From Polyangiaceae bacterium (GTDB lineage: Bacteria > Myxococcota_A > Polyangia > Polyangiales > Polyangiaceae), in the NCBI GenBank assembly GCA_050287085.1, contig JBNKBE010000010.1, forward strand, positions 163,665-227,664: a stretch of DNA of 64,000 bases, written 5' to 3'. Positions 2,345 through 41,775 of this stretch are shown one piece after another. Position numbers and translations under genes: made by a program. The notes below the pieces were generated by a model. That model had not been told where the DNA came from, did no database searches, and saw only the letters and a program-made list of their open reading frames with translations. The first letter of the stretch is position 1. Each line of letters begins with the position of its first letter.

Positions 2345-2360
2345 TGTCGGTGATCTGACA
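2345..2360. promoter_or_regulatory. NifA upstream activator sequence for the nifZ operon
   Basis: TGT-CGGTGATCTG-ACA (TGT-N10-ACA), ~80 nt upstream of a sigma-54 box. Confidence 0.8.
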
Positions 2361-2439
2361 ATACGAGCGTCGCAGCGAGGAGAACCCGCAACAGGGGCGT
2401 CTCGCGCGACGAGAAGCGCGATAGGTCGTCCAGAGCCAC

Positions 2440-2455
2440 TGGCATTCGCTTTGCA
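2440..2455 (+). promoter_or_regulatory. Sigma-54 -24/-12 promoter (nifZ-nifX-greA-like)
   Basis: TGGCATTCGCTTTGCA, GG-N10-GC. Confidence 0.85.
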
Positions 2456-2467
2456 TCTACACCAAAC

Positions 2468-2995
2468 GTGAAGGCACGATATGAACTGGGGCAGCACGTT
2501 CGGGTGACGCGAAACGTGCGCAATGACGGCACGTTTCCTGGGCGTGACATGGGTGAGCTCTTGCTACGCCGTGGGGCCACCGGCTATGTCCGTGATATCG
2601 GAGCGTTTCTCCAGGATCAGGTCATCTACTCGGTTGACTTTATCGAGTACGGCTATCGGGTGGGGTGTCGCGAGCAAGAGCTCATTGCGGCGGAGGCGCC
2701 GTGGCTCCCCAACAGGTACGAGTTCAGAGACCGTGTTTATCTGACAAGAGCGATAGGTGTGCGAGGAGAACAGGTGGCGCTCGCGGGTACTGAAGTAGAG
2801 ATCCTTCGCGTTGTTCGTACTCACCCGACGTGCATCCTGTATCATGTCCTTGTTGCAGGTCGGACTTTTCAACTGCCGGAAGCCGTCCTTGAAGGCGAAA
2901 GTGACTTTGATGAAAAGGTCAAAGAGACAGTCGCGCGCGGTATAGATGCCAATGGAACCACCGCTGGCGCCACCTTGCCCTGGCAGAATCTATGA
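2468..2995 (+). CDS. nifZ: NifZ, MoFe-protein P-cluster maturation
   Basis: VRVTRNVRNDGTFPG...G.VRDIG.FLQDQVIYSVDF...VGCREQEL signature; GTG start. Confidence 0.92.
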   Translation: MKARYELGQHVRVTRNVRNDGTFPGRDMGELLLRRGATGYVRDIGAFLQDQVIYSVDFIEYGYRVGCREQELIAAEAPWLPNRYEFRDRVYLTRAIGVRGEQVALAGTEVEILRVVRTHPTCILYHVLVAGRTFQLPEAVLEGESDFDEKVKETVARGIDANGTTAGATLPWQNL

Positions 2996-3007
2996 AAGGC
3001 CACAGCC

Positions 3008-3484
3008 ATGCTACCTATTGCATCACAGAATGCGTTTTCAGATGCAGCTTCGGAGGACCTGTTGACGGTGGCCTTGGCTACCAGCGACGATAAGAGTGTG
3101 AATCAACACTTTGGCTCTGCAAAGCGCTTTGTCATTTTCGGTCTTTCAAGAGATGAACGGCGGCCCCTCGGAGAGCGCGCTTTCGCCGACGCGGTACAAG
3201 ACGGAAACGAGGACAAGCTCGTGGACAAGCTCCAATGGTTGAAGGGCTGCGACGTCGTGGTCTGTGCGCAAGTGGGGCAGTCTGCGGCCAAGCAATTGCT
3301 CAGCGGCGGCACGCGGCCCATTGTCGTCAGAGGGGGGGCAGCCATTGCTGAAGTGCTTGCTGAGCTTCAGAAGGAGCTCGTCGAGCAGAAAGCCGCGTGG
3401 CTCAATCAGATCATGCGTCGCAAGGGAGCTGCTTCCAAGGAGCGGCTTTATGACATGCTTGATGATGATTGGGAGGCGTCATGA
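3008..3484 (+). CDS. nifX: NifX (canonical-looking copy), FeMo-co precursor carrier
   Basis: VALATSD...VNQHFGSA, DGNEDKL, VGQSAAKQLL, C-terminal ERLYDMLDDDW. Confidence 0.85.
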   Translation: MLPIASQNAFSDAASEDLLTVALATSDDKSVNQHFGSAKRFVIFGLSRDERRPLGERAFADAVQDGNEDKLVDKLQWLKGCDVVVCAQVGQSAAKQLLSGGTRPIVVRGGAAIAEVLAELQKELVEQKAAWLNQIMRRKGAASKERLYDMLDDDWEAS

Positions 3485-3918
3485 GCGCCTTGTCGTTTGA
3501 AGCGTCGGCGCCAAGCACGTCGTTGCCGCGAACTCTCGAGAATTGGATGACGGAGCGCTGGCATGGAGTACTGAAGCTCCGCTTGACGCGGGAAGAACAA
3601 GCCGGCGATCTGGCACGCGCCTCGGAGTTGCGGGCGCGCTTGGAGCGTGCCGTGGTGGTCAGGCGGGAGGACATTCTGTCGACGCGAGTGCAGTTTGGCT
3701 CAGAGGTTACGGTATTCAACATCGATGAGGCGGAGGAGCAGACCTTTGTGGTGGTTAGTCAAGATGAGGCAAGCGTTGGGGCAGGACTCGTAGACCAAGC
3801 GAGTCCGCTGGCGCAGGCGTTGTTTGGAGCTCAAGAGGGAGATGAGGTGGAAGTTGTGCTTCCCCGCGGCAACACCTGCCGCTATGAAGTGACAGCGATC
3901 GGCATTCCCAAGAGTTGA
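3481..3918 (+). CDS. N-terminally shortened GreA/GreB/Rnk-like protein
   Basis: REEQA...[44 protein letters not shown] overlap with the nifX stop. Confidence 0.75.
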   Translation: MSALSFEASAPSTSLPRTLENWMTERWHGVLKLRLTREEQAGDLARASELRARLERAVVVRREDILSTRVQFGSEVTVFNIDEAEEQTFVVVSQDEASVGAGLVDQASPLAQALFGAQEGDEVEVVLPRGNTCRYEVTAIGIPKS

Positions 3919-3961
3919 GCCAGCGAGTGCTTTGCCTCAGCCACTCTTCGCCGAAGACCGC

Positions 3962-4717
3962 CTAGTCATTCCCTTGATCGGAGGGGTCCGTCTGACTTAG
4001 GCGGGCTTCGACGAGTCGCCGTACCTCTGGCTCTGGATCGTCGACGAGTCGGCGAATTGCGTCGAGTGGCGCAAGCGAGGCAGCCTCGAGGCGCACGGTC
4101 CAGTCGGTATCTTTCAGCAGAGGAGCTAGGTCCGCTCCTCTCAGTCGGGTGGCGACAACACGGCGCACTTCGGGTGCCTCGTCGTAGGTCATGAAAGGCA
4201 GGCTCACCAGGGGCAGCCGCGCTGCAACCACCTTGCGCACTTCTCGCTCCCGATCGTTCATGAGCGGAAAGAGGCGATCGGCGTGCATGCGACGTGCGGC
4301 GTAGACCCGCACCTGATAGTCAGGATCGTTGGCAAGCTCTCCGAGGGCATCGGCGGGCAAGCGATCGGCAACCGTAATGCGCACTTCGCGATCCGGATCC
4401 GTCTTGAGTAGGACGAGTTGCTCCAGTGGCAGGCGGTATGCAACGGCTCTGCGCACTGTTTCGTCCGGATCGGAAATGAGCTCGGGGAGCTGCTCGACCG
4501 GAAGGTATCGCGCGCTGATCGCTCTGCGTTCCCAGAAGGGGTCCTTTGTGTACTGCGAGGCACAAGCTGGATTGTTGCGAAAGAAGCGATCGATCTGTCG
4601 ACCACTATTCACCTTTACACAGGCGTCGCCAGGGGCGCATCGGCCAACGTGTGCCAGCACTTGGTGGCAACAGCGTGAGCAGTCAGCGATTGGCGTGTGG
4701 CGCTCGGGCTGAGCCAT
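3962..4717 (-). CDS. lrv: LRV: 4Fe-4S-binding leucine-rich repeat variant protein (nif-associated)
   Basis: N-terminal CxxC...C.PG.AC Fe-S motif followed by ~24-aa L..DPD.EVR..VA.RL repeats. Confidence 0.85.
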   Translation of the reverse strand: MAQPERHTPIADCSRCCHQVLAHVGRCAPGDACVKVNSGRQIDRFFRNNPACASQYTKDPFWERRAISARYLPVEQLPELISDPDETVRRAVAYRLPLEQLVLLKTDPDREVRITVADRLPADALGELANDPDYQVRVYAARRMHADRLFPLMNDREREVRKVVAARLPLVSLPFMTYDEAPEVRRVVATRLRGADLAPLLKDTDWTVRLEAASLAPLDAIRRLVDDPEPEVRRLVEARLSQTDPSDQGND

Positions 4718-4720
4718 GCA

Positions 4721-5110
4721 CTACTCCGGAACCAAGCGCAGCTCACTCTTGAGTGCGCTCTTGCGACCCCATACCTGTACCGCTTCGACGTGTAGCTGAG
4801 GGCGCATGGGATGGGTGCGAGTTACGAAGTACTCCGCGAAAACACTGCCGTCGCCACGAAGTAGGACACTACCCTGTTGTTCTCCGCTTCTATGCCAGGC
4901 GATTTCCAAGGCGAGTGAGCCATCAAACGGATCGCTTCGAAATGTCGCAGTTGTTGCGTCTTCGAACGGGGCTTTGGGAAGTTGCAGTCCGATGTGAGTG
5001 AGCTCGACTACTATGCGTTCTGAAACCGCGCCCGCGAGCTCACGTACCGCTTGCTCGGTGAGGGGAAAGGCAGCCGGAGCGCGCTCAGTGATTGTTGTGG
5101 GCATTGTCAT
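4721..5110 (-). CDS. Conserved nif-associated hypothetical protein
   Basis: DPFDGS...GSV...DGSVFAEY...HP...EAV..WG....KSELRL resembles small ORFs of proteobacterial nif clusters (recalled, not searched); start 5110 or 5104. Confidence 0.6.
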   Translation of the reverse strand: MTMPTTITERAPAAFPLTEQAVRELAGAVSERIVVELTHIGLQLPKAPFEDATTATFRSDPFDGSLALEIAWHRSGEQQGSVLLRGDGSVFAEYFVTRTHPMRPQLHVEAVQVWGRKSALKSELRLVPE

Positions 5111-5121
5111 CGACCTTGGCG

Positions 5122-5463
5122 TCAACGCTTGAGCACGACGATCAGTTCTGCGACGGGGGTTCCCCGTGTCAGGTGCGAGTCGACGATGAGGTCGATATCA
5201 TCTTTGCTCTTGGGTTGGTACCAAACCCCTTCCGGGTAGATCACCATCAGGGGCCCAGCGCTGCAGAAGCCCATACAGCCCGTTGTGTTGAGGGATACTC
5301 TCGGGTCCTGCATGCGCTCCAGTCGAACGGATAGGTGTTCCCAGAGCGGTCGCGCTCCGGCCGATCCGCAACTGCCTCGGGGGTGGTTCGGAGGGCGGTC
5401 TTGGCAACAGACAAGGCAATGATACTTGTAGACAACCGGTAGTTCGAAACCGCTTACGTTCAT
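5122..5463 (-). CDS. Thioredoxin-like [2Fe-2S] ferredoxin (Shethna protein I / FeSI type)
   Basis: C...RPPNHPRGSC, GCMGFC..GP...IYPEGVWY; ATGA coupling to the nifQ stop. Confidence 0.85.
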   Translation of the reverse strand: MNVSGFELPVVYKYHCLVCCQDRPPNHPRGSCGSAGARPLWEHLSVRLERMQDPRVSLNTTGCMGFCSAGPLMVIYPEGVWYQPKSKDDIDLIVDSHLTRGTPVAELIVVLKR

Positions 5464-6212
5464 AGCGATGACTCCTGGCACACGGGGCTTGTGGCGATCG
5501 AATCGGAACCGGACACTACGAAGCATTCTTCGAAACTCGAACACTCGTCGCAGGACGGCGCTCGGCAGACGTAGTCGCCGCCCAGTTCGCATAGTTGTCG
5601 GTAGAAGAAGCGCTTCCAACGCATGTCACGCGTGTTCTTTGCTACCAGCTGGGGAAAGCAAGCGGACAACAAGAGGCGCAGCTCTGCCCTGGAATTGAGG
5701 CCCAGATCCTTCCAGAGGTGTTGTCCTCCAAGGCATGCATGAGCCACTATCCTGGCCACCAGGCGGGGCGCTTCATCTTCGGGTCCAAGCTCGGTGCTGA
5801 GCAACTTCACTAGCTGCGAGACTTCGTCTTGCCGCTGGGACGCGAGCAGCGCTCGCAGCGCCCCGCGTTCGTCGAATCGCTTGGCGCATTGCTGGTATGC
5901 GGGTATTCGGATGAGTTCGTTCATCAGCTCATCGAGTGTTGGTGCGCTGCCATACGCGAGAGCCAGCAAGTGATTGAGCGCGTCTCTGCCAAGGCCCAGG
6001 TAGCTCGGTAGCGCCGAGTCACCTGCCAGTGTGCTTGCCAGAATACCCGTCAGGATTCTCGACAGTGTGCCCTCCAGCGGGCGGGTCGCGCCCTGTTGCG
6101 GGGGGCTACGCTGTAGCCGCGCGGACACGTAGCGCCGTAGATCCACTGGTACGGAACGTCCCTCGCCTTGTTCGGGAAGGGTGGAGGTATACATGAACTC
6201 TGCACAGCTCAT
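5460..6212 (-). CDS. nifQ: NifQ, Mo delivery for FeMo-co
   Basis: HLWKDLGL..R.EL...N...MRWKRFFYRQLC...CRAPSCDEC.....CF; start uncertain. Confidence 0.92.
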   Translation of the reverse strand: MSCAEFMYTSTLPEQGEGRSVPVDLRRYVSARLQRSPPQQGATRPLEGTLSRILTGILASTLAGDSALPSYLGLGRDALNHLLALAYGSAPTLDELMNELIRIPAYQQCAKRFDERGALRALLASQRQDEVSQLVKLLSTELGPEDEAPRLVARIVAHACLGGQHLWKDLGLNSRAELRLLLSACFPQLVAKNTRDMRWKRFFYRQLCELGGDYVCRAPSCDECSSFEECFVVSGSDSIATSPVCQESSL

Positions 6213-6228: not shown

Positions 6229-6525
6229 CTAGGAGCTAGACGCGGCGGACCTGTCGGCCTCTTTGGCTCGGAGTTCTAGGGTGCGTTCAGCCGGAATGCC
6301 GGTGAGTGTTCCCAGTGGATTCAAGGGCTGACCGCTTGCGTCTAGAATTGCCTCCTCGACGGGACAGATGGTCGCGCATTGAGGCGTGTCGTAGTCTCCG
6401 GCGCATTCCGTGCACTTGCGGGAGTTCACTTTGAAGTGTGGTTTGCTCTCGTAGATGGCGTCATTCGGACAGACCATCATGCAGGCAAAGCAATTGACAC
6501 ATAGCTCTACGATCTTGACCGACAT
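6229..6525 (-). CDS. fdxN: FdxN-type 2[4Fe-4S] ferredoxin
   Basis: CxxCxxCxxxCP and CTEC.....PQC..ICP; directly after nifB; GGAGG RBS. Confidence 0.85.
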   Translation of the reverse strand: MSVKIVELCVNCFACMMVCPNDAIYESKPHFKVNSRKCTECAGDYDTPQCATICPVEEAILDASGQPLNPLGTLTGIPAERTLELRAKEADRSAASSS

Positions 6526-6535
6526 GAGACGCCTC

Positions 6536-8078: not shown

Positions 8079-8366
8079 TCAGGCAGGCATCGGAGAGTGA
8101 GTGTGACAGTCGCGCGGACAGACCGCGTCGCAGGCCCGACATCCAATGCAGTCCAGGGGATCTTTCAGAGTCATCACTTTGAGCACGTCGTCGTCGTTGT
8201 CGTCGTCGTCGTCGTCGCAGGCTTCGCGCTCCATGAGTTCAAAGACGTCCCGCGGGCATACTTTGAAGCAGCGGCCACAACCGATACACTTGCTCTCGTC
8301 CAAGGCGGTTACGTATTGAGGTACCCACTCGTCGCCTCGGAGCGTACGGCCCACGATATTAGCCAT
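8079..8366 (-). CDS. fdxB: Ferredoxin III, nif-specific
   Basis: W.PQYV...CIGCGRCFKVCP, acidic run, CIGC.AC..VCP..CHTH. Confidence 0.88.
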   Translation of the reverse strand: MANIVGRTLRGDEWVPQYVTALDESKCIGCGRCFKVCPRDVFELMEREACDDDDDDNDDDVLKVMTLKDPLDCIGCRACDAVCPRDCHTHSPMPA

Positions 8367-9076: not shown

Positions 9077-9080
9077 GAAA

Positions 9081-16921: not shown

Positions 16922-18145
<1,224 letters not shown>

Positions 18146-19684: not shown

Positions 19685-20515
19685 CTACCCGAGAAGCGAT
19701 TGCGGACGCGCCTCGATGATGGATAGCCTAAGACGTTGGCAGAAGCGTCGCTCCTTGTCGGTGGGATTGTTGAGAAGAACCCACCCGGTACTAGTTTTGT
19801 CCGCGCCGTAGGTCAATTCTGTAAGGAGCATGCGTTCGGTATCTCGTCTGAAGCGCAGTCCCACAACCAGATAGCGCTTGTCGATACGACGAGCTTTTAC
19901 GAACGACGGGATGGCAAAGCCACCCATCAACTCAGTAATGTAGTCGACGAAGTCTGCATCCGAGGCAATGAAGCTTGGACTGGGAAGCGGCGTTCCTAGC
20001 GGTTTGAAGAGGACAGGTAGGGCCTTGTCGACCGCTTCAGGCGAACGCTCAACATAGCTACTTCCGGTAAACTCGAAGAGCTTGTAGCGATAGTCGGTTG
20101 CACCGATGCGGGCCACGCCCAGAATCAGTGTGTGTCTTCTCCCCTCGTAGGCCTTCTGCAGCTGTGAGTCGCGATTGGTGTCAATTATGTAGGGGAGATT
20201 CTGGGCCGCAAGCCACTGGTGAAGTGGGGACGCCGTCCACTGTCTCGTGGCGTAGGTACGCGTCAGGGAGTCTTCTACGAAGCGCCGACCTTTCTTGAGT
20301 TCAAGATTCATGGCAGCTCGCGAAAACTCGTACATCAGTTTTGGCGCCATCGGCTTGCCGGCGTTCAGCGAGAGAATCAGGCTGTCGGAGTCCGCCGGAA
20401 TCGGCGTCCCATTCGCTGCGTCGACGACTCCGTCGAGCGCCTCCGGTCCGAGATAGGGAACGACGCTTCCGTTTGCCAGGCCTTGTTTGATTTCTTGGAT
20501 AACTTCGAGGTTCAT
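19685..20515 (-). CDS. Nif-associated SIR2-like (SIR2_2) domain protein
   Basis: VVPYLGP...PIPADSDSLI, APKLMYEFSRAAM, ASDADFVDYITELMGGFAIP; end of the iscA-clpX operon. Confidence 0.8.
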   Translation of the reverse strand: MNLEVIQEIKQGLANGSVVPYLGPEALDGVVDAANGTPIPADSDSLILSLNAGKPMAPKLMYEFSRAAMNLELKKGRRFVEDSLTRTYATRQWTASPLHQWLAAQNLPYIIDTNRDSQLQKAYEGRRHTLILGVARIGATDYRYKLFEFTGSSYVERSPEAVDKALPVLFKPLGTPLPSPSFIASDADFVDYITELMGGFAIPSFVKARRIDKRYLVVGLRFRRDTERMLLTELTYGADKTSTGWVLLNNPTDKERRFCQRLRLSIIEARPQSLLG

Positions 20516-20519
20516 GACT

Positions 20520-21833
20520 CTACCCGTGTCCGTTGGCGGCGCTTTCGCTGGTGGGGGGGACCTGCTGCGCGCTCCATTCGCACTCCAGGTGCTGGACTTG
20601 GTCCAGGTAGAGCTCATCATCTGCGGAGCAGCGAAGCGTGCAGCGTGTTGGTCGATCGAATGGCAGTTCAAACATTGTCGGGAGCAGGGCTTTTTCCAGG
20701 ACGGAACGGAGCCCTCGGGCACCCGTTTTCGCCTCCAACGCCACGCGCGCTACGCGCTTGAGCGCGGCTGTGTCGAAGTCCAGCGTCACGCCGCTTTGAG
20801 CGAACAGTACTTGGTATTGACGAGTCAGCGCATTGCGAGGTTCACGTAGAATGCTGACCAACGCTTCTTCGTCAAGTTCCTCAAGTCCTGCCAGGACCGG
20901 GAATCGTCCGAGGAACTCGGGAATGAAGCCATATGAGCGGAAGTCGCGATTCTCTGCCTGAGAGATGAGTTCGAGCATCTCGGCCTCGCCGCGGGCAACC
21001 GAGCCGGTGCTGAACCCAATGCGCTTCTCGGGACGCATGCGCTTGGCGACGCTCTCCAAGAGCCCATCAAAGGCACCGCCGACGATGAACAGGATGTTGG
21101 TAGTATCTAGGTAGTCACGACTGTCACGTCCGTCGCGGTCCTTGCTCTTCTGCTTTGGTAGAGAGACACGATGTCCTTCGACGAGCTTGAGAAGTGCTTG
21201 TTGTACACCCTCGCCGGAGATGTCGCGCACTCCGGTCGGACCCTGGGAGCGCCGGGCGAGCTTGTCGACCTCGTCTATGTAGACGATGCCCCACTCGGCG
21301 CGGCCGACGTCACCGTCCCCGGAGTCAAGGAGGCGATGAATGATGGTGTCCACGTCTTCCCCAACGTAACCGGCTTGCGTGAGGGTCGTCGCGTCGGCTA
21401 TGGCAAAGGGGACTCCAACAAGGGCCGCCAAGCGTCTTGCGAGCAGCGTCTTTCCGGAGCCGGTCGGACCGAACAGGAGCACGTTGGACTTCTCGAGGAC
21501 TACGCTGTCGTCGGCTTCGGTGGACAGTTTCGCGTCGGCACGCAGGTGCAGGCGTTGATAGTGGTTGTAGACGGCCACCGAGAGAATGCGTTTCGCAGCG
21601 TCCTGTCCGATAATGAACTCGTCGAGTTGGCGCTTCAGTTCGCGAGGAGAAGGCACGGTGGGCGCTTCACCTTTGCGCCCTCCACGACTGCCCCATGCCG
21701 ACACCACACGGTGCGCACAGCGCACGCAAGCATCGCAGATATAGCCGTCTTGGCCCGCAATGAGTGGGGTTCCGGGACCTTGTGCCACGCCACAAAACGA
21801 GCAGCTGGGGGAGGAGGGGGCTCTAGTTGACAT
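20520..21833 (-). CDS. clpX: Nif-associated ClpX paralog (ClpX2-like)
   Basis: CSFC..C..C Zn finger, GPTGSGKT, DATTLTQAGYVGEDV, IGF loop; follows nifM. Confidence 0.93.
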   Translation of the reverse strand: MSTRAPSSPSCSFCGVAQGPGTPLIAGQDGYICDACVRCAHRVVSAWGSRGGRKGEAPTVPSPRELKRQLDEFIIGQDAAKRILSVAVYNHYQRLHLRADAKLSTEADDSVVLEKSNVLLFGPTGSGKTLLARRLAALVGVPFAIADATTLTQAGYVGEDVDTIIHRLLDSGDGDVGRAEWGIVYIDEVDKLARRSQGPTGVRDISGEGVQQALLKLVEGHRVSLPKQKSKDRDGRDSRDYLDTTNILFIVGGAFDGLLESVAKRMRPEKRIGFSTGSVARGEAEMLELISQAENRDFRSYGFIPEFLGRFPVLAGLEELDEEALVSILREPRNALTRQYQVLFAQSGVTLDFDTAALKRVARVALEAKTGARGLRSVLEKALLPTMFELPFDRPTRCTLRCSADDELYLDQVQHLECEWSAQQVPPTSESAANGHG

Positions 21834-22566
21834 GATGGGTCTCCGCGAGCACCGTCTGAACCCAACGCTTTTGTGCGGACAGCTGTCGTCGTCGTAGCAG
21901 CGTAGACCTCAACTTGGCTTCAACGTTGGAGAAGCTCTTGATATGCTCCGGAACGACTTCAAGGCACTGCACGATGTGCCATCCCATTGTCGTGCGAATT
22001 GGGACGCTCACCTCGCCCTCATCGAGTTCGAAGGCCGCCGCATCCAGTTCCTTGTAGAGCTGACCTCGCTGTATCCAGCCCAGTAGCGCCTGGTCCATCG
22101 CAGTGGGGCACTCCGACACCTCGAGTGCCAGCGTTCCGAAGTCTGCGCCCAAGTCCAGCTTGCGCTTGACCTCGTCTATTCGGAGCCTAGCTGTCTGTTC
22201 CGTGTTGTCGATAAATCGATCTTGAACGGTGATCAGAATATGTCGCAGTTTTCGCTTCTCTGGGACGAGCCAGCGTTCCGGGTAGCGGCGGTAGAAGTTC
22301 TCGAGCTCGTGTTGTTCAAGAGGCATGACATCTTTGGACACCTCCTCGAGAGTCGCCTTAAGCCATTCCTTGCGGAACAGTTCGTCCGCCACCTGCTCTG
22401 CTCGAAGATGCGTTGAAGCAAGCTGCCCGCGCAGTTCGGGATCGGTCGAAAGGAGCTCCAAGAGGACCGCCTTGCTCGGGAGTCGCGCCTTGACCCGGAG
22501 CGCTTCTTGCGTTGCGAGCAGTCTCGCAGCGAGCTCGCTGCGCTCCAATGTAGGGCGCGACGTCAC
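21823..22566 (-). CDS. nifM: NifM, parvulin-type PPIase for NifH maturation
   Basis: PE.R..RHILIT, F..LA...SECPTAM...LGW..RGQLY..LD..AF; located between nifW and clpX. Confidence 0.85.
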   Translation of the reverse strand: MTSRPTLERSELAARLLATQEALRVKARLPSKAVLLELLSTDPELRGQLASTHLRAEQVADELFRKEWLKATLEEVSKDVMPLEQHELENFYRRYPERWLVPEKRKLRHILITVQDRFIDNTEQTARLRIDEVKRKLDLGADFGTLALEVSECPTAMDQALLGWIQRGQLYKELDAAAFELDEGEVSVPIRTTMGWHIVQCLEVVPEHIKSFSNVEAKLRSTLLRRRQLSAQKRWVQTVLAETHHVN

Positions 22567-22916
22567 TTGTTGGCTCCGCTGTCCGTCTGGACGTTCAGGG
22601 CTCCTTCAAGATGCGTGAGTGGGACGAACGTCTCACCAATAGCGTTCTTCAGTACCTTAAATACGCGCTCGTCGAGGGGCGTTGATTCGACGAAGTCCTG
22701 ATAGGCGCGAGCGAGCAGGGCCCTATGGACAACGTGGCGGGCGGATTCGTTCTCCGGACTTATGTCACTGCTTCGTTCCAAGTAGTCGTGGTAGCGCTGG
22801 AGGATGTGAAGGCGATTGACATGAACAACACTCGCTTCGTATGGCACCTCGAAGTAGTCGAGGAAGTCTTCTGCGGAACTGAGTTCCGACAGGGCATCGT
22901 CAAGTTCAGTCATCAT
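22563..22916 (-). CDS. nifW: NifW
   Basis: LSSAEDFLDYF.VPY..SVV.VNRLHILQR...AY.DFV.STP...VFKV. Confidence 0.93.
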   Translation of the reverse strand: MMTELDDALSELSSAEDFLDYFEVPYEASVVHVNRLHILQRYHDYLERSSDISPENESARHVVHRALLARAYQDFVESTPLDERVFKVLKNAIGETFVPLTHLEGALNVQTDSGANK

Positions 22917-22930
22917 GGTGCTCTCCTTCA

Positions 22931-24103
22931 TCAGGGGCGATTTGCGTTTGGCGAGGGTGCTCGGGCGCTTGCGCCGTCGTCGGCGAGTCGACTGTTTGTG
23001 TAAAGAGCGAGTAGCTCCTTCCGACGGGGCGAACGCTTATTGACGATCGCAAAGCGGCGCACTTCGTTGAGGAGTAGCGTGCTTCGCTCCGGCTCGAGTG
23101 CGATGCCCAGGTTCTCAAAAACGCGGCTCAGGGCCCGCGTTCCGGAGTGTTTTCCGAGCACAATGGTGTGTCGTCTGCCGAGCAAGCGGGCATTGACCCC
23201 GTCGTAGTTGTGCACGTCTTTGAGCAAGCCATCGACATGGATACCAGCCTCATGGGTGAAGACCGCTCGGCCGACGATGCTTTTCTGTGCCGGCACGGCT
23301 CGTCCCGACGCCTTCGACACGGCTCCGGACAGAGAGCGTAGACGTTCGGTGCGCACTCCGGTGGTGCGGCCATAGAGCTGGTGCAAGGCAACCACAACCT
23401 CCTCGAGTGGAGCGTTCCCCGCCCGTTCACCTAGACCGTTGACGGTTGTGTTGACATGCGTGGCGCCTCCGACCACCGCAGCTAGGCTGTTTGCTGTGGC
23501 AAGACCCAAGTCGTCGTGCGCGTGAATCTCGAGCTCGAGGTCGGTCGCGCTTCGCATCCGACGAAACGCGGTTGCGATACCAAAGGGCTCGGCTACGCCG
23601 AGAGTATCGGCATAGCGAAAGCGACGTGCACCTGCCGCTTGGGCAGCCTCGAGCACACGAAGAACGAACTCAGGATCGGCCCTCGACGCATCTTCTCCGC
23701 CGATACATACCTCGAATCCGAGGTCACGAACGGCTGCGGTGCACGTTGCTATCTGGGATAGGACCCAACGGCGGTCTTTGCCGAGCTTGTGATGAATATG
23801 CTGCTCCGACATCGGTACTGAAATGTCGACGATGTGAACAGGGAGACCGGCAAGGAGCGCGACGTCCGCTGGGTTGCAGCGGCTCCATACCAACAATCTC
23901 GACGGGAGGCCGGCGCTCCCGATCGCGGCTATAGCCTCCCGCTCTTCTGCGCCCATCGCTGGGATACCCACCTCGAGCTCAGGTACTCCGAGCTCGGAGA
24001 GTCGACGTGCTATAGCCACCTTTTCGTCGAGACAAAAGGCGACGCCCGCCGTCTGCTCACCATCACGCAACGTCGTGTCGTCAATGACGATATGCTGGGT
24101 CAT
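22931..24103 (-). CDS. nifV: Homocitrate synthase
   Basis: [41 protein letters not shown]. Confidence 0.95.
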
Positions 24104-24144
24104 CAGGGCTCCTGCTGGGCGCGTGTATCCACGTGGCCCGCGTT

Positions 24145-25356
24145 CTAGGCGTAGACTGGTGCGAACGCCTGCTCTGGGTCTTCTTTGGGGCCGCTTTCGC
24201 CCCAGTAGGGCGATAGCTTGCGGAGTTGGGCTACGACAGCGGGTGTCTCCGCGATGACGTGGGCGACTTCGTCCGCCGTGGTATATGTGGACAGAGAGAA
24301 GCGAACGGTCCCGTGAGCGGCCGTATAGGGAATACCCATCGCTCGCATCACGTGGGACGGTTCGAGCGAGCCGGAGGTGCAGGCAGAGCCACTGGATGCG
24401 GCGATTCCGAGACGATTTAGCAGCAGCAGGATCGCTTCGCCTTCGATGAATTCGAAGGCGATATTGGCAGTATTGGGCAATCGATTCGTCGGATCACCGG
24501 TGACGAAACATCTGGGAATGGCTGCGAGCAGACCTTGTTCCAGACGATCGCGAAGAGCACGGACGTAGGTATTCTCCCGCGCCATGTTGGCCAGTGCGAG
24601 CTTGGCAGCCTCCCCAAGTGCTACGATTCCGGGGACGTTCTCCGTTCCGGCGCGACGACCACGTTCCTGGTGTCCACCCCGAAGAAAGGGTCGGAAGCGT
24701 GTGCCCCGCTTCACGTAGAGGGCGCCCACTCCCTTGGGTGCGTGCAACTTATGTCCGGAAAGCGACAGCATGTCGATCTTGGTACTCTTGAGATCGAGAG
24801 GGATCTTTCCGACGGCCTGTACCGCATCTGTATGAAACGGCACTCCTTGTTCGTGGGCCAGCTCAGCCATCTCAGGAATCGGAAAGAGCGTTCCGGTTTC
24901 GTTGTTTGCCCACATGACGGTTGCGATCGCGACCTGCTCTGACAAGGCCCTCTTATATTCGGCCATGTCCAGGCGCCCCTGTGAGTCGACGCCGAGCCAA
25001 TGCACTTTGTAGCCCTCAGACTTCTCCAGGTAGGAGCAAACGTTGAGTACCGCAGGATGCTCCACTGTAGTTGTGATGAGCTCTTTGCGCTCGGGGTTGG
25101 CGCGGACGGCGGAGAGAATCGCAGTGGAGTCCGACTCGCTTCCACAGGAGGTGAATACGACTTCGGTAGAATGAGCCGCGCCCAGCAGTTCCTGCACTGC
25201 CTTACGGGCGTCGTTCAGCGACTTCGCAACGCGATTGCCGAAGCTGTGCATCGAGGACGGATTGCCAAACTGCTCGGTTAGGAACGGAAGCATGGCTGTC
25301 ACGACCTCGGGGGCTACTTGGGTCGTTGCGTTGTTGTCGAGATAGACGTCGGGCAT
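24145..25356 (-). CDS. nifS: Cysteine desulfurase NifS
   Basis: YLDNNATT, SGHKLHAPKG, SSGSACTSGSLEPSHV. Confidence 0.97.
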   Translation of the reverse strand: MPDVYLDNNATTQVAPEVVTAMLPFLTEQFGNPSSMHSFGNRVAKSLNDARKAVQELLGAAHSTEVVFTSCGSESDSTAILSAVRANPERKELITTTVEHPAVLNVCSYLEKSEGYKVHWLGVDSQGRLDMAEYKRALSEQVAIATVMWANNETGTLFPIPEMAELAHEQGVPFHTDAVQAVGKIPLDLKSTKIDMLSLSGHKLHAPKGVGALYVKRGTRFRPFLRGGHQERGRRAGTENVPGIVALGEAAKLALANMARENTYVRALRDRLEQGLLAAIPRCFVTGDPTNRLPNTANIAFEFIEGEAILLLLNRLGIAASSGSACTSGSLEPSHVMRAMGIPYTAAHGTVRFSLSTYTTADEVAHVIAETPAVVAQLRKLSPYWGESGPKEDPEQAFAPVYA

Positions 25357-25359
25357 TGT

Positions 25360-26277
25360 TCAGCCTCCCATGTGCACTAGTTGCTTCTTGGCATGCTGAG
25401 GGACCACCTTCAGGAATTCGCCAGTGGCTTCCATCAACTTCTGCTGAACAAGGCCGAGTGTGGCAGAAGCCAGAGAACACCCGGAACACGCCCCCGTTAG
25501 TTCTACGAGGACTTGATTGCCGTCGATGTCAAGCAGGCTGATATCGCCGCCGTCAGCTCGCAGTGTCGGCCGTACGCTCTCTATGGCCTCTTCGATCAGG
25601 CGGATGCGCTGCAGATCGGTGAGTTGAGCGGGGGCTGCCTTCTTGGCACGGGTTGATTCTTCGGGAAGCGGTGGCTCAGTGAGATGGCCAGCACCGCTTT
25701 CGTAGTCGTCGCCGGCCAGTACTTCCGCGAGAATGTCTTCGATCGACTCGTGGCAGCAGGCGCACCCACCGCCTGCTTTGGTGTAGTTGACGACATCTTG
25801 GACCGTAGAGAGATTGTTTTCCCGAATGACGCGCTCGATCATGGGCGCGTCAATGGCAAAGCACTTGCAAACCAGGGCACCTTCCTCGTGATCGTCGACC
25901 CACTCTTCGCCGCGGTAGTTTGCAACGGCTGCGTGTAGCGCCTCTCGGCCCATTACCGAGCAATGCATCTTCTCAGGGGGCAATCCTTCGAGGTAGGCCG
26001 CGATGTCGTTGTTCGTGACAGCCAGCGCATCGTCCAGCGTCATACCTTTTACAATCTCGGTGAGAGCAGAGGACGAGGCGATAGCGGAGCCGCAGCCAAA
26101 CGTTTCAAAGCCCGCCTCGAGAATAACGTCTGTGTTGGGGTCGACTTTGAGTGTTAGTCGGAGTGCGTCCCCGCATGCGATCGAGCCGACCTCGCCAATT
26201 CCATTGGGAGCGTCGACTGCACCCGCGTTGCGCGGATTGAAGAAATGGTCCTTAACCTTATCGGTGTAATCCCACAT
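25360..26277 (-). CDS. nifU: NifU Fe-S scaffold (three-domain)
   Basis: MWDY..KV..HF, CGD, GCGSA, MHCS, CKCF...GGC..C, DGGD...GACSGC. Confidence 0.97.
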
Positions 26278-26304
26278 GCTGGCCTCGTATCTGCGAATAC
26301 CTGC

Positions 26305-26628
26305 CTAGCAGGCGAACGACTTGCCACAGTTGCAGGCGGCTGTGGCGTTGGGGTTTTGAAATTTGAATCCGGTCCCGTCGAGACCGTCTAGGAAGTCAAG
26401 CGTGACGCCTTCGAGCATCGGGGCACTTTCCGGATCAATGAAGACCCGCGCTTCGCCCTCGGTGATGACGGTGTCGTTGTCAGCAGCTCCAGTTTCCACT
26501 TTCATCTTGTACTGGAGACCGCTGCATCCTCCGTTTTCGACGGCGATGCGAACTCCGCTTTGGGTAGAGGACGCCGTCCCGGCGAACCGCACGACAGCGT
26601 TGACTGCGCTTTCTGTTAGCGTGAGCAT
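26305..26628 (-). CDS. iscA: IscA(nif) A-type Fe-S carrier
   Basis: GGCSGLQY, GFKF.NPNA...CNCGKSF. Confidence 0.93.
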   Translation of the reverse strand: MLTLTESAVNAVVRFAGTASSTQSGVRIAVENGGCSGLQYKMKVETGAADNDTVITEGEARVFIDPESAPMLEGVTLDFLDGLDGTGFKFQNPNATAACNCGKSFAC

Positions 26629-31148: not shown

Positions 31149-31166
31149 AGCAGAAGCGGAGGACCC

Positions 31167-31700: not shown

Positions 31701-31709
31701 GGTGCTGTC

Positions 31710-34312: not shown

Positions 34313-34314
34313 TC

Positions 34315-35615: not shown

Positions 35616-35627
35616 GGGGTTTCGCTG

Positions 35628-37430: not shown

Positions 37431-37437
37431 GGCGCAC

Positions 37438-38517
37438 GTGGAGCTATATGCCAAAGTGCGGGTTCCGCTCCGAGATTTTGAGCTGGACGTCGAGCTCAAT
37501 ACGCGCGCCGACGTGCTCGGGATCTTTGGTCGCTCCGGGGCAGGCAAGACCAGTTTAGTCGAAAGCCTCTGCGGTCTTCGACAACCTGCTCGGGGTAGTA
37601 GCATGTCCCTTGATGGGCAGGTTTGGATGAGCCCGAGTGATCGTCGCGCCGTACCGGCTCACGCCAGGGCAGTCGGCTATGTTCCTCAGGGCAGTCTGCT
37701 GTTCCCTGACCGCAACGTGCTCCGAAATCTTCGAGCCGGGGCGTCGCGTCAGCGCTTGGGTGCGGCAGAAGGGGCCGAACTCGAGGCCCGAGTGATCGAA
37801 GCTCTGGAACTCAACGCTCTGCTGCACGCCATGCCCGCCGAGCTGTCTGGCGGAGAGCAGCAACGCGTCGCACTCGGGCGCGCCTTGTGCTCTGGGGCGA
37901 GGCTGTTGGTGCTCGACGAGCCTACGGCATCGCTCGGGGTCGTATTCCGGCGCAAAGCGCTCGCCTTGCTCGATCGGATCCGTCGCCAGTTCAACGTGCC
38001 CATGGTGGTGGTTTCTCATGAACCGCTGGACCTGCAGTTCCTGTGTGACGAGATGGTCGTGCTCGAACGGGGCCGCATTGTGGCACACGGTCCACCGGCA
38101 AGTGTACTCCCTCGTGTATTGGAGCCAGAGCGCCGCCCACCGACCCTGCTGCGAGGGATGATCGTGTCGGTAGACAGCCATCTCACAATTGTCGAGCTGG
38201 CGGGCCTTCACCGCATTACCGTTAGCGGCGCTGCGGGGACAGTCGGTGACTCGGTTGTGGTGGGTGTGGACGCGGCGCGGGTCGTCTTGGCGCGCAAGCA
38301 GCCAGAAGAGGTTTCGGCTCTGAATTCGCTTCCTTGTTTGGTTCAGAACGTGGAGCACGCGGGCAGTCACTTGTCACTCGAACTGCGACTGCAAGGCAGC
38401 GATATCGGCCTTCGCAGCGAGATCACTGAAGCCGCGCGAGCGCGCCTTGGATTGCGCGTTGGGATGCCCGTCTTTGCGGTGATAAAGTCCGTCACCGTGT
38501 GGGCGACGCCCAGCTAG
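37438..38517 (+). CDS. modC: Molybdate ABC ATPase with TOBE/Mop domain
   Basis: GRSGAGKT, LSGGEQQRVALGRAL, SALN, VFAVIKSV. Confidence 0.92.
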   Translation: MELYAKVRVPLRDFELDVELNTRADVLGIFGRSGAGKTSLVESLCGLRQPARGSSMSLDGQVWMSPSDRRAVPAHARAVGYVPQGSLLFPDRNVLRNLRAGASRQRLGAAEGAELEARVIEALELNALLHAMPAELSGGEQQRVALGRALCSGARLLVLDEPTASLGVVFRRKALALLDRIRRQFNVPMVVVSHEPLDLQFLCDEMVVLERGRIVAHGPPASVLPRVLEPERRPPTLLRGMIVSVDSHLTIVELAGLHRITVSGAAGTVGDSVVVGVDAARVVLARKQPEEVSALNSLPCLVQNVEHAGSHLSLELRLQGSDIGLRSEITEAARARLGLRVGMPVFAVIKSVTVWATPS

Positions 38518-38527
38518 GGCAAGGCCA

Positions 38528-39256
38528 CTACTGGCTGTGCATTTCTTCGGCGGCGTTTGCCCTCCCAAACTTGGTGCGTTGGTCTGCGGCAACCCCCAGT
38601 ATCTTGGCTAGCCAGGGCGGAGGTTTGCTGACCATGATGCCCTGGAGGCGCTGCAGGTGCTCGCGCGCGTCGCCACCCTCGGCTTGTTTGATTGGGTACA
38701 CCCCCTGGCGGATTACCTTTGCCGCCGCCGGCCCCCCCATCGAAACGACATACAAGACTTGGCAGTCGGAGATTAGGGTTGCCCTCGCGGCGTTCTTGTC
38801 GTCTGTAAGATCGGCAGTCACTGCGCTTCGTAGATCGACGAGGCGGATGGCGGTCTCGGATACTTCGTAGACCAAGAATCGAAGGCAGCTGCCAAAGTGT
38901 CCGTTGAGCTTCTCCGAGCTATTGGAGGCGACCGCAACCCGAAGCTTCTGTGTAGCGAGTGGCAACGCGGCCTGCGTCAGCGGTAGTTCCTCCGCGGTTT
39001 CGTCGCCCCACAGGATCTGAACAGCGTTCTTGAGATTCTCAAGTCCTGGGCTCATGTCCTCGCCGTCTTCTTCTCCGTCGAGGCTACCAAGTCCGGTCTT
39101 GAGATCGGTCACCGTGATCTTGGTCAGGACGTTCGTGTCTAGCGGCGTACCGAGCCGCTCCAACAGCACGCTCAGTAGCGCTTTGAGATCGATGCCCGGG
39201 AGGGCCCGTGCCGCCATGGCGATTCTCAGCGCCACCTGCTTGTCTAGAGTTGCCAT
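38528..39256 (-). CDS. nafY: NafY (nitrogenase gamma subunit)-like
   Basis: VALRIAMAARALP N-domain; NGHFGSC, GGPAAAKV, PPPWLAK; located near rnf as in Azotobacter. Confidence 0.82.
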   Translation of the reverse strand: MATLDKQVALRIAMAARALPGIDLKALLSVLLERLGTPLDTNVLTKITVTDLKTGLGSLDGEEDGEDMSPGLENLKNAVQILWGDETAEELPLTQAALPLATQKLRVAVASNSSEKLNGHFGSCLRFLVYEVSETAIRLVDLRSAVTADLTDDKNAARATLISDCQVLYVVSMGGPAAAKVIRQGVYPIKQAEGGDAREHLQRLQGIMVSKPPPWLAKILGVAADQRTKFGRANAAEEMHSQ

Positions 39257-39319
39257 CGCTTCCTTTCTGTGCCTGCCCATTGGGCGTTGGGCTTGACAAA
39301 TCCGCTTGAGAAGTTTGCT

Positions 39320-39335
39320 TGCAACTAGTGAACCA
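39320..39335 (-). promoter_or_regulatory. Sigma-54 promoter of nafY
   Basis: Minus strand TGGTTCACTAGTTGCA. Confidence 0.8.
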
Positions 39336-39486
39336 ACCGGGAGGTCCCTCCAGAGGTTGGCGTGCCGCCACGATGCTCTGGGTTTGGATGGGTGAGAGGT
39401 GACCTCCCGCGTCCGAAGGAGACCGGCTCGATTGGTAGCCGCGTTCCTTCGAACCGCACAGATGGGAGCCATTGCGCCAAAGATAT

Positions 39487-39502
39487 TGTCGCGTTGCTGA
39501 CA
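39487..39502. promoter_or_regulatory. NifA UAS between divergent sigma-54 promoters
   Basis: TGT-CGCGTTGCTG-ACA. Confidence 0.82.
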
Positions 39503-39586
39503 TAAGGCACCTCCACGCCAAGGGCGCCCCGTGACTGCGACATTGTTTGGAGGTAGCGGTGCTGCGTGCGCGAGCCGACATCGCTG

Positions 39587-39602
39587 TGGCACGGCTGTTG
39601 CT
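39587..39602 (+). promoter_or_regulatory. Near-consensus sigma-54 promoter of an unknown gene
   Basis: TGGCACGGCTGTTGCT. Confidence 0.88.
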
Positions 39603-39653
39603 CCTGTCTCGAATGATGCGCCTCCATGCCGCGACCGGCGTTGGGAAAGGAAG

Positions 39654-40589
39654 ATGAAGGTGATGAACGTTCCGTCAGAGTTGGCAATCTCGAGCGCCGC
39701 GTATCACCACGTGCAGCATGCCATGGCTAAAGCGTTCGACTCGATGGTCGTCGATGAGCCACTGGTCCCCCTCACCATGAGGTGGCTAGAGGATGAAGTG
39801 CGGGTTGAGCAGTTCATGGCGGGGACGTACGACGATTCGATCGCGCAAGCGATGCGCTCCGTTGAGAGTCGGGTGGACGCAGCGACTGCCTATGCGGTGG
39901 TCTGGAGCGGATACATCAATGTGAATGGGCGGCGCTCGGAGGCGGTTGTGCTGGAGCTGGCACTGAGGCAGGAGCCCTGTGCGCATCAACTGGCGCAGTC
40001 CTATGCTGTGACGGACGACGGCGACAAGGTCGTTCTACGCGGCGATATCATGGGCTTGGGAACCGCCCCGAGCCTATTTCATCATCAGCTCAGCGTGCTG
40101 AATATGAGTGAACATCTGCTCAAGCCAGAAGGTGTGACGAGCGATGCACATCTGGTAGCCGTCATGGCTCAGCCCTTTGCGCAGATTCCGGCGGCTTTGA
40201 TTTGCCTAGCCGCCAACCTCTTCGAGGGTTCAGAGGCAGAACGCGCCTCCGCTGGCATTCGCACACTGCAGAACTTGGAGCGAGACGCCAAGGGACAGCT
40301 GTGTCGACATGTTTTGAAGATGACGGTCGCTGCTGTAGCAGGGGGTGACCTGGCCACAGTGCTTCCAGCCGACACCATCGAGGGACTCACCAAGGTGCTT
40401 GTCGAAGGTGCGCAGCAGCTGAAGTTCCTGATTCAGAAGGGACTGGTTCAGGAGTCGGACGCCAGAGACTACTTGGCGACTGTGAGACGTATCGTTGCTT
40501 CGGTGGTTGGTTGCGACGGTACGCCCGAAGCGGCGCGAAGGGGTGAACGATTGATTGGGATCTTTGACGCAATCGCGCGTCTCTCCTAG
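39654..40589 (+). CDS. Hypothetical protein (~311 aa)
   Basis: Long ORF; ATG after GGGAAAGGAAG, downstream of the sigma-54 box; no family recognised. Confidence 0.75.
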   Translation: MKVMNVPSELAISSAAYHHVQHAMAKAFDSMVVDEPLVPLTMRWLEDEVRVEQFMAGTYDDSIAQAMRSVESRVDAATAYAVVWSGYINVNGRRSEAVVLELALRQEPCAHQLAQSYAVTDDGDKVVLRGDIMGLGTAPSLFHHQLSVLNMSEHLLKPEGVTSDAHLVAVMAQPFAQIPAALICLAANLFEGSEAERASAGIRTLQNLERDAKGQLCRHVLKMTVAAVAGGDLATVLPADTIEGLTKVLVEGAQQLKFLIQKGLVQESDARDYLATVRRIVASVVGCDGTPEAARRGERLIGIFDAIARLS

Positions 40590-40826
40590 CTCACCTCTCG
40601 GGCGTTGCGGCGGATCCGATGCCAGCATGCTTTCTGCGGCGAATCGAAATGCCCATCTGGTTCACACATTGTTGCGGGTCGAGAGGCGACCCATCGAAAA
40701 GGTTGGTGCAATCTAGAACGTCGCCCAATCACAGGACTGGAGCGCTCCTGAGAAGAGCGGGACCTGGCGTTCGGCTCCCAGCTGGAAGCTTAGAGAAGTG
40801 AACTACCTAACTAGAAAGAGCGAAAT

Positions 40827-41345
40827 ATGGCAAAGATTGGCTTGTTCTTTGACACCGACACCGGCACGACCCGCAAGGTAGCCAAGATGATTCGAAAGCT
40901 ATTTGCCGACGGAGATGTCGAGCTGATGAATGTAGCGAAGGCTACTCCCGACGACTTTCAACGCTTCAAGGCGCTGATCTTGGGGACGCCGACGTTGGGT
41001 GAAGGTGAGCTGCCCGAGAAGTGGGCCGAGTTCTTGCCACAGCTCGAGGGCCTGGACTTCAGTGACACGACGGTTGCGCTCTTTGGGCTCGGCGATCAGG
41101 AGGGCTATGCACACGAATTCGTCGACGGCCTTGGACTGCTATTTGAGGCATTCGAGGAATTGGGGGCAAACATCATTGGTTCATGGCCACTGGAGGGCTA
41201 CAAGTACGATGTCTCTCGCGCTGAAGTCGACGGAGAGTTCTGTGGTCTTGTCATCGACAATGACAATCAGTCTGAGTTGACCCACTCACGGATAGAGAAG
41301 TGGGTTGAGCAAATCAAGCCAGACCTGATGGCAGCCGCAGGATAG
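40827..41345 (+). CDS. nifF: Long-chain flavodoxin NifF
   Basis: MAKIGLFF.TDTG.TRKVAK, LGTPTLGEGELP, FGLGDQ.GY, D.DNQS.LT..RI..W. Confidence 0.9.
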   Translation: MAKIGLFFDTDTGTTRKVAKMIRKLFADGDVELMNVAKATPDDFQRFKALILGTPTLGEGELPEKWAEFLPQLEGLDFSDTTVALFGLGDQEGYAHEFVDGLGLLFEAFEELGANIIGSWPLEGYKYDVSRAEVDGEFCGLVIDNDNQSELTHSRIEKWVEQIKPDLMAAAG

Positions 41346-41346
41346 G

Positions 41347-41775
41347 GTGATGACACGAAACAGTCTGTTGGCAGGCGGTAGAAGTCCCCAACAATGGCTT
41401 GACGCGGCGCGAGAGCTGCTTGGGTCGGCGGGTGAACAGATCGCCAGCGAGGACAAACGTGCGCTTCTTGCGACCCTGAAGTCGGCAGGGGGCTTTGCGC
41501 TCAGAGCGCTCTTGCTCACTTCACCCCAGAAGGGATGGGGCACAAGCCCGACTGAGCACCTTGCCGGTCTAGCCGATAGCACGCGGATGCCGGCGGAGGT
41601 CCGCGCGGCAGCTAGACGCTTGCACGATGCCCAACCTCGAGAGCAGGATCTGGTGCAGATCGGACCACCGACGTGCGGCCCAAGGTCATGGCATTCGGCG
41701 GCAGATGTCCTCGTCAGTTACGTCGCCTCGGCAATTGGGAGTAGCCGGCAGTCGGCGACGGAAAGACCCAACTAG
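41347..41775 (+). CDS. Hypothetical helical protein coupled to nifF
   Basis: ORF begins immediately after the nifF stop; no family confidently recognised. Confidence 0.55.
   Translation: MMTRNSLLAGGRSPQQWLDAARELLGSAGEQIASEDKRALLATLKSAGGFALRALLLTSPQKGWGTSPTEHLAGLADSTRMPAEVRAAARRLHDAQPREQDLVQIGPPTCGPRSWHSAADVLVSYVASAIGSSRQSATERPN

Follow-up and report, generated by a model that had tools for sequence, protein, structure and literature searches.

A gammaproteobacterial-type nif, nifLA, and rnf gene cluster in a genome of the Polyangiaceae (Myxococcota)

Gene content of the window

The window is a stretch of 64,000 nucleotides from a Polyangiaceae bacterium (assembly GCA_050287085.1, contig JBNKBE010000010.1, positions 163,665 to 227,664); the subject of this work is the nitrogen-fixation (nif) supercluster at 2.3–41.8 kb within it, in which the genes of a molybdenum (Mo) nitrogenase lie together with the regulatory genes nifLA and with rnf. 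The genome is labeled G000 (6.2 Mb; 96.8% complete, 0.85% contaminated) and the contig C10 (228 kb); two further genomes with the cluster are used for comparison, G003 from the same genus and G262 (=G041; 72% complete) from another genus of Polyangiaceae. Genes were called with NCBIfam and Pfam scans of 70 open reading frames (ORFs) of the window and 17 follow-up queries; nifZ, nifQ, the LRV protein, and nifY/nafY are identified on a Pfam basis. An initial annotation, made from the sequence letters, had described a complete nif/nifLA/rnf supercluster of about 48 intact ORFs with rnf divergent from nifL. All genes named there are present with open frames, 48 intact-looking ORFs are counted at 2468–41775 besides one TrmO fragment, and the divergent arrangement is seen; modABC (35930–38517), the grx4-bolA-rhodanese genes, and a SIR2-like gene had been overlooked.

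All six genes of the Mo-nitrogenase minimum nifHDKENB are present and over the family cut-off (NCBIfam bits: nifH, 468; nifD, 865; nifK, 902; nifE, 680; nifN, 540; nifB, 655). Also over the cut-off are nifS (627), nifU (459), nifV (499), nifA (570; cut-off 529), and nifL (488; TIGR02938, cut-off 242), together with clpX, rnfA/B/C/D/G/E/H, nifT, fdxIII, modA, modB, and the flavodoxin gene. Below the cut-off, with the family still the best match, are nifM (146/168), nifW (111/117; passing the Pfam threshold), nifX (61/112), and modC (274/285). The ligand motifs that we take to be those of the P-cluster, the iron-molybdenum cofactor (FeMo-co), and the Fe protein are present in NifH, NifD, NifK, NifE, and NifB. 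Read from the sequence, the cluster holds predicted structural, cofactor, maturation, Mo-uptake, and electron-supply genes.

Features are listed by coordinates, strand, and description. UAS, upstream activating sequence, TGT-N10-ACA; sigma-54 site, TGG(C/T)(A/G)-N7-TGC; both patterns are what we take to be the consensus.

2345..2455, +, UAS-like TGT-N10-ACA for NifA (2345) and sigma-54 -24/-12 site (2440), 5' of nifZ; both conserved in G003 and G262
2468–2995, +, nifZ (Pfam)
3008–3484, +, NifX/NifB-family protein (family scan)
3469–3918, +, GreA/GreB C-terminal-domain protein (family scan)
3962–4717, -, LRV FeS4 protein (Pfam)
4721–5125, -, ORF without family
5122–5463, -, thioredoxin-like 2Fe-2S ferredoxin
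5460–6212, -, nifQ (Pfam)
6229–6546, -, fdxN-type ferredoxin
6536–8017, -, nifB (NCBIfam); radical-SAM CxxxCxxC present
8079–8453, -, ferredoxin III, fdxIII (NCBIfam)
8359–8601, -, Rop-like protein
8606–9157, -, NifX-associated DUF269; sigma-54-like site at 9259, inside nifX
9081–9554, -, nifX
9564–10937, -, nifN (NCBIfam)
10937–12373, -, nifE (NCBIfam)
12415–12669, -, DUF6129-like ORF
12639–13358, -, nifY (Pfam)
13414–13638, -, nifT (NCBIfam)
13656–15227, -, nifK (NCBIfam)
15351–16847, -, nifD (NCBIfam)
16922–17797, -, nifH (NCBIfam); sigma-54 site at 17862
18206–18526, -, rhodanese
18523 to about 18780, -, BolA
18795–19130, -, Grx4 glutaredoxin; two UAS-like sites at 19310 and 19340
19420–19719, +, TrmO/TsaA fragment, end of the N-terminal domain only
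19685 to about 20515, -, SIR2-like gene
20520–21833, -, clpX (NCBIfam)
between clpX and iscA (19685..26628), -, nifM, nifW, nifV, nifS, nifU
26305–26628, -, iscA; sigma-54 site at 26680, UAS at 26849
26927–28486, -, nifA; overlaps the end of nifL
28467–30059, -, nifL (PAS1-PAS2-DH-GHKL)
30570–35933, +, rnfABCDGEH, divergent from nifL; UAS at 30389 and sigma-54 site at 30542 before rnfA
35930–38517, +, modABC, molybdate ABC transporter
38528–39256, -, nafY (Pfam)
39651–40589, +, ORF without family, about 310 amino acids (orf39651); UAS at 39487, consensus sigma-54 site at 39587
40827–41345, +, nifF, long-chain flavodoxin (NCBIfam)
41347–41775, +, ORF without family

Six of the 15 sigma-54 matches in the 40 kb stand directly upstream of a gene in the right sense (nifZ, DUF269, nifH, iscA, rnfA, orf39651), and for five of these six (nifZ, DUF269, nifH, iscA-nifU, rnfA) G003 and G262 have a site at the corresponding position. 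The 40 kb contain 14 matches to the UAS pattern, whereas the genome would lead one to expect 3.1 in a stretch of that length. With a UAS and a consensus sigma-54 site ahead of it, orf39651 is possibly NifA-controlled; it has no Pfam or NCBIfam family, is not present in the G003 and G262 loci examined, and reaches only 0.83 in its Atlas matches, with six full or near-full relatives at 36–41% identity as the only close ones among 50% representatives. The ModB of the cluster is 67% identical to the cluster copy of G003 and at most 38% to other ModB matches in the genus. In G003 (L011:1700-6800), transhydrogenase and bacterioferritin genes are inserted between nafY and modC. At the position of the TrmO fragment, G003 and G262 carry a second nifZ together with a TrmO-like gene of greater length; the fragment apparently reflects a local deletion in G000.

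Host, phylogeny, and distribution

By its marker genes S12, RpoB, and GroEL, the host is an uncultured Polyangiaceae myxobacterium (Myxococcota), in line with the initial annotation, and not a member of the Proteobacteria. S12 falls in a 587-member 90% cluster in which organism-named members are called "Polyangiaceae bacterium" or "Myxococcota bacterium"; in this look-up of eight core proteins, S12 was placed, six were singletons, and one was not found. RpoB of G000 is 86/85/80/77% identical to G003/G006/G024/G262 of the family, against 56% to Ketobacter; GroEL, encoded on C10 itself, is 93/89/82% identical to G003/G006/G262 and 64% to Ketobacter. No 16S rRNA gene is present in the G000 assembly. 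The MYXO-CTERM-type tail noted earlier near 51.1 kb does have the cysteine, the hydrophobic helix, and the arginine-rich end; it has no NCBIfam match at E<=1, and none of the seven MYXO-CTERM (TIGR03901) matches in G000 lies on C10. The putative DAG-type linkers, also noted earlier, are apparent in translation only. Order and orientation of the cluster are kept in G003 (43/47 cluster queries; 35–95% identity) and in G262 (37/47 queries), where the cluster lies on a 2.86-Mb contig also bearing rpoB. Because of these syntenic copies a chimeric contig, which the initial annotation had left to be checked, is excluded.

Trees of NifH, NifD, and NifK together (HDK) comprise a bootstrap tree (22 of 36 aligned rows), a second tree (21 ingroup rows), a quick tree (36 rows), and a quick mixture-model tree. 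G000, G003, and G262 form a clade (100/100) within the gammaproteobacterial type (100/100), and the split uniting them with Ketobacter, Cellvibrionaceae, and Halieaceae is found in 1000/1000 bootstrap trees; the 36-row quick tree and the mixture-model tree agree, and addition of 29 random gammaproteobacterial NifK loci gives the same pattern with weaker support (84). In approximately unbiased (AU) tests on HDK, joining the clade to the Anaeromyxobacter type is rejected (p=0.003 and 0.001), as is joining it to a Rhizobium-like type of Polyangiaceae (p=2e-7); with NifD alone, in a constraint that omitted two clade members and was followed by the repetition on HDK, joining the Anaeromyxobacter type is not rejected (p=0.51). 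On these sequences, the cluster is assigned to the gammaproteobacterial-type group I NifHDK, apart from the alpha/cyano and Anaeromyxobacter types.

Within the family, nifK (E<=1e-100) is found in 22/383 genomes. The NifK tree (21 family loci, the window, and 78 named loci; G097, with a short match, was left out) shows four nif types: three gamma-type (G000, G003, G262), ten Rhizobium-like, seven Anaeromyxobacter-type, and two distant. The Rhizobium-like type groups with Rhizobium in the HDK tree (four of ten tested); the Anaeromyxobacter type occurs in G098 and G099, and NifD of G098 is 84–85% identical to that of Anaeromyxobacter. The other Polyangiaceae nif types lie at loci L003, L004, L123–L140, and L146–L155. 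One Rhizobium-like locus is in the 12.4-Mb single-contig genome G381, and G099:C43 (L153–L155) carries Anaeromyxobacter-like and Rhizobium-like nif clusters about 30 kb apart, the second with nifD matches in two pieces. Sampling 400 genomes of the order and 400 of the phylum yielded no additional nifK of the gamma type. In the Gammaproteobacteria comparison, nifK is present in 39/401 genomes (all group I types); among the 80 best NifK matches in GTDB genomes, a set from which Azotobacter and Stutzerimonas are absent, 78 loci belong to Pseudomonadota or unclassified proteobacteria and the other two are G003 and G262.

With the nifH1/nifH2 primer sequences as we take them to be, all three nifH genes are matched with zero mismatches. 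Among the loci compared, the window's amplicon is closest in amino-acid sequence to Thiocapsa (96.7%), closer than to the relative G003 (95.8%); identity to the Anaeromyxobacter type is 83–84%. The nifH misassignment foreseen by the initial annotation is supported: marker-gene surveys would misname these organisms.

Regulation, proposed working, and explanations weighed

NifL (PAS-PAS-DH-GHKL) is encoded directly upstream of, and overlapping, nifA; it is over the cut-off also in G003 and G262 and not in G006 and G024. None was found in 270 other genomes of the class, with five candidates scored per genome. The NifL clade comprises nine sequences, namely the window, G003, G262, and six metagenome proteins (60–69% identical to the window NifL); a NifL-queried metagenome scan gave no member of the myxobacterial clade among the 80 loci listed (best, 39%). 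In PAS1 of the window NifL, S39, E70, Y83, W87, N102, and H133, which are presumably flavin contacts, are the same as in Azotobacter; residues of the GHKL domain are conserved too, N419 is kept, two of the seven clade members aligned have Q at E70, and the position H305 (non-phosphorylated) is F in NifL. At the NifL–NifA interface, with residues taken as named for the A. vinelandii complex in the consulted part of PMC12998190, NifL keeps E298 and R323 and has S, N, or H for E488 in all seven aligned members; NifA keeps 5/7 tested contact residues (K230, R258, E356, E360, N373), with Q in place of P257 and of E366. NifA's GAF domain has diverged (Pfam GAF_3, 17.8 bits, below the cut-off). G000 carries one rpoN, one PII with Tyr51, GlnD, and aa3 and cbb3 oxidases; a model of the PII trimer with the NifL GHKL domain (score 0.02) gave no verdict and is not used as evidence.

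On the Azotobacter model, low oxygen would leave the flavin (FAD) of NifL reduced and low fixed nitrogen would leave PII uridylylated, upon which NifL would free NifA; freed NifA would activate the sigma-54 promoters. Rnf would move electrons from NADH to ferredoxin or NifF at the expense of the ion gradient, the cbb3 oxidase would hold oxygen low, and ModABC would bring in molybdenum. The labels "oxygen-regulated" and "diazotroph" given by the initial annotation are thus ones that we, too, infer by analogy. A Na+-NQR-like operon (G000:C1:304896-311988) is the only Rnf/Nqr paralogue in the genome and may hint at a saline habitat.

With the queries used, neither the Shethna protein FeSII nor cytochrome bd was found in G000 (96.8% complete); FeSII is present in G003 and G262, cytochrome bd in G003 only. 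G000 therefore looks microaerobic and not aerotolerant in the manner of Azotobacter. In G262 (L108:7324-8138 and L110:3456-8701), an FeSII homologue and a second 2Fe-2S ferredoxin lie on one side of the cluster, and a pyruvate:ferredoxin oxidoreductase lies on the other. A GH10 xylanase, esterases (acetylxylan-esterase-like), and a xylose ABC transporter encoded on C10 suggest that plant polymers poor in nitrogen feed the fixation; the host would probably be a microaerobic diazotroph living on such polysaccharide. A complete Nit1C/MSMEG_0565-0572 nitrogen-starvation cluster (55029–62466, -; nitrilase, radical SAM, GNAT, AIR-synthase-like, glycosyltransferase, flavin oxidoreductase) lies 13 kb from nif as a second nitrogen-scavenging module.

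The explanation we consider probable is that of a complete gamma-type Mo-nitrogenase regulon, taken up once and anciently by Polyangiaceae, most likely from a Pseudomonadales-type gammaproteobacterial donor, and since maintained by selection in two genera and no fewer than three species. Horizontal acquisition by a Polyangiales-like myxobacterium, as proposed earlier, is supported by the trees and the distribution; the exact donor is not fixed, and the direction of transfer is read mainly from the distribution (3/383 genomes of the family against nifK in 39/401 Gammaproteobacteria). Several observations weigh against this explanation: beyond its own nine-sequence clade, no match of NifL exceeds 44% identity; E488 is replaced; in NifA, Q stands for P257 and E366 and the GAF is diverged; FeSII and cytochrome bd are not found in G000; the cluster is patchy within the genus (2/18 genomes; a third bears another nif type); the flanks differ in all three genomes; and a basal position outside all gamma-type proteobacterial rows, though 16.7 log-units worse than the careful tree, has p-AU 0.20 in that comparison and 0.63 and 0.78 against the quick trees, where the constrained tree even scored higher. 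Because of the changes in NifL and NifA, regulation may differ from that of Azotobacter; because the AU test does not reject the basal position, the donor is not established; and a single old acquisition fits the patchiness and the differing flanks only with many losses.

That NifL has ceased to be an oxygen-sensing anti-activator here, or that the cluster is silent, seems decidedly improbable. The replaced E488, E70 changed to Q in two of seven, the diverged NifA GAF, and the missing FeSII match in G000 would fit it, whereas every frame is open, the proteins are strongly conserved while silent sites are near saturation, promoter motifs are retained in three genomes, and E298, R323, N419, the PAS1 positions, and the nifL–nifA overlap are kept. 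To an artefact of assembly or binning, by which a nif region of gammaproteobacterial origin ended up attached to, or in one bin with, a myxobacterial genome, we give a negligible chance. All three genomes do seem metagenome-derived, and the GC content of the cluster is 0.59 against about 0.63 for the genome; the sole sequencing run matched is a DNA run, no RNA run being listed, and could be the assembly's own source and so not independent. One Logan contig from it covers 32001–52000, on the right side of the cluster, in one piece without difference. Yet three diverged genomes share the cluster order and one clade, rpoB and the cluster share a contig in G262, the GroEL on C10 is family-like, and G000 is nearly complete with little contamination.

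The two remaining alternatives concern history. The same working system could have split off first among the gamma-type nitrogenases with NifL and Rnf, being derived from an unsampled or extinct stem lineage and not nested in living Gammaproteobacteria; a variant with Polyangiaceae as the donor side is less likely still. The AU values above, the long stem of the NifL clade (0.44) with its fall in identity from 60–69% to at most 44%, and a gene order of its own, unlike that of Ketobacter, speak for such a branch, which we nevertheless hold to be improbable: the careful tree is better when the clade is nested, the basal split occurs in 0/1000 bootstrap trees against 1000/1000 for the Pseudomonadales-type split, and the cluster is rare in Myxococcota and widespread in Pseudomonadota. 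Somewhat unlikely, though a serious candidate, is lateral movement of the cluster as an island between Polyangiaceae once it had entered the family, in place of inheritance from the common ancestor of the two genera; the system would work as in the explanation preferred above, and the history alone differs. It would account for three genomes in 383 with different flanks, for the odd composition in G000 (tetranucleotide distance 0.155, with 1/131 genome windows as far; GC at third codon positions (GC3) 0.673 against 0.717 +/- 0.039 for the genome, near the 10th percentile), for a right-flank PEP-synthase-like gene in 0/17 other genomes of the genus, and for silent sites more diverged than in rpoB: identical four-fold sites between G000 and G003 number 451/1496 (0.30) in nine accessory genes, 0.37 in HDK, and 268/598 (0.45) in rpoB. 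Against it, the HDK branching ((G000,G003),G262) mirrors host kinship (bootstrap 87–93), no tRNA, integrase, or terminal repeat of a mobile island was found at the cluster, and there was no recent transfer between the three genomes because silent sites are near saturation. An empty-site search found no conserved flanks; GC3 of 14 core cluster genes follows that of each host, at 0.67/0.75/0.65 (G000/G003/G262) against 0.74/0.81/0.65 in rpoB. The data fit vertical inheritance followed by many losses as well as they fit ancient lateral transfers inside the family. The right flank (42028–47809) holds PAP2, PEP-synthase-like (PigC/RedH-like ligase), and UbiA-like genes.

Returning to the ancient uptake, a whole regulon including its regulator would have entered another phylum without losing its integrity. 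Whether a nif module of 40 kb can plug into a foreign PII/sigma-54 network, which is relevant to nif engineering, becomes testable, as does how many "gammaproteobacterial" nifH amplicons derive from myxobacteria; a natural NifL variant without E488 is offered as well. The lineage looks rare, and its share of nitrogen fixation may therefore be small. More tentatively, and short of regarding it as likely, we suggest that Polyangiaceae hold an active, deep-branching NifL/Rnf lineage, with NifL beyond Pseudomonadota, a re-tuned NifL–NifA interface, and wiring to the myxobacterial PII and sigma-54; the family would be a repeated sink of nitrogenase clusters (four types, 22/383) and a hidden group of microaerobic, polysaccharide-degrading diazotrophs that nifH surveys assign to the Gamma-, Alpha-, or Deltaproteobacteria.

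Comparison with known systems

Papers cited by PMC number below were consulted in part, and statements drawn from them refer to the parts consulted. The initial annotation had likened the cluster to the Azotobacter/Stutzerimonas kit. The gene set is indeed shared with Azotobacter vinelandii and Stutzerimonas stutzeri: group I Mo-nitrogenase, nifLA divergent from rnfABCDGEH, nifUSVWM-clpX, nifY/nafY, nifF, and sigma-54 sites with UAS; of the A. vinelandii interface (PMC12998190), K230, R258, E356, E360, and N373 of NifA and E298 and R323 of NifL are the same. Different are the host (Myxococcota), NifL (41–43% identical, E488 replaced), NifA (P257 and E366 replaced), the arrangement as one 40-kb block in its own order with modABC inside, and FeSII, not found in G000. 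The nearest relatives are instead of the Ketobacter/Cellvibrionaceae/Halieaceae type (NifD, 87–90%; NifK, 79–82%). Ketobacter has a nearly equal gene set, including nifF, rnf, nifLA, rhodanese, bolA, and SIR2-like genes; its order is rearranged, accessory proteins are 34–76% identical, GC3 is 0.44 against 0.67 in the window, and four-fold sites agree at chance level (0.25–0.27).

Candidatus Tectiglobus diatomicola ("Gamma A") likewise has gamma-type nif and rnf in a non-gammaproteobacterial host, and its nifH was earlier read as gammaproteobacterial (PMC11208148); that transfer was between classes of one phylum, whereas the present one is between phyla, and "nifL" does not occur in the main text of that paper. 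The Anaeromyxobacter type belongs to the same phylum as the window and is also found in Polyangiaceae (G098, G099); it differs in its NifHDK clade (NifD about 61% and NifK 49% identical to the window) and, as the initial annotation had stated, in being compact, with no nifL or rnf in the loci examined.

NifL–NifA has been described for Proteobacteria (PMC10372690, PMC8219145, PMC12998190). For Myxococcota, a metagenome-assembled genome (MAG) with cluster III nifH only (PMC10356936), three nif-bearing MAGs, one of them of Polyangia (PMC11474244), and eight nifH-bearing Polyangiales MAGs, their cluster types not given in the parts consulted (PMC13479853), have been reported; the earlier suggestion of an undescribed diazotroph lineage is narrowed by the latter two. 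Deltaproteobacterial group I NifD/K are monophyletic, and soil surveys lean on that single clade (PMC11127431); cellulolytic Polyangiaceae without nif are also described (PMC11613949). In the literature searched, which covered few subscription journals and included the consulted parts of PMC11155484 and PMC12685144, no report of NifL or of a gamma-type nif cluster in Myxococcota was found; nothing relevant was seen in the consulted part of bioRxiv 10.64898/2026.06.16.732551, and the terms sought do not occur in PMC9447857. Neither the occurrence of NifL in Myxococcota nor that of four nif types within a single family was met with in print; G000, G003, and G262 may already be listed as nifHDK-positive in NFixDB data or bioRxiv supplements. 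Transfer of gamma-type nif into other groups and the presence of nif in Polyangiales are already in print, and what the cluster adds to this known system is a new phylum and a distinct clade of NifL.

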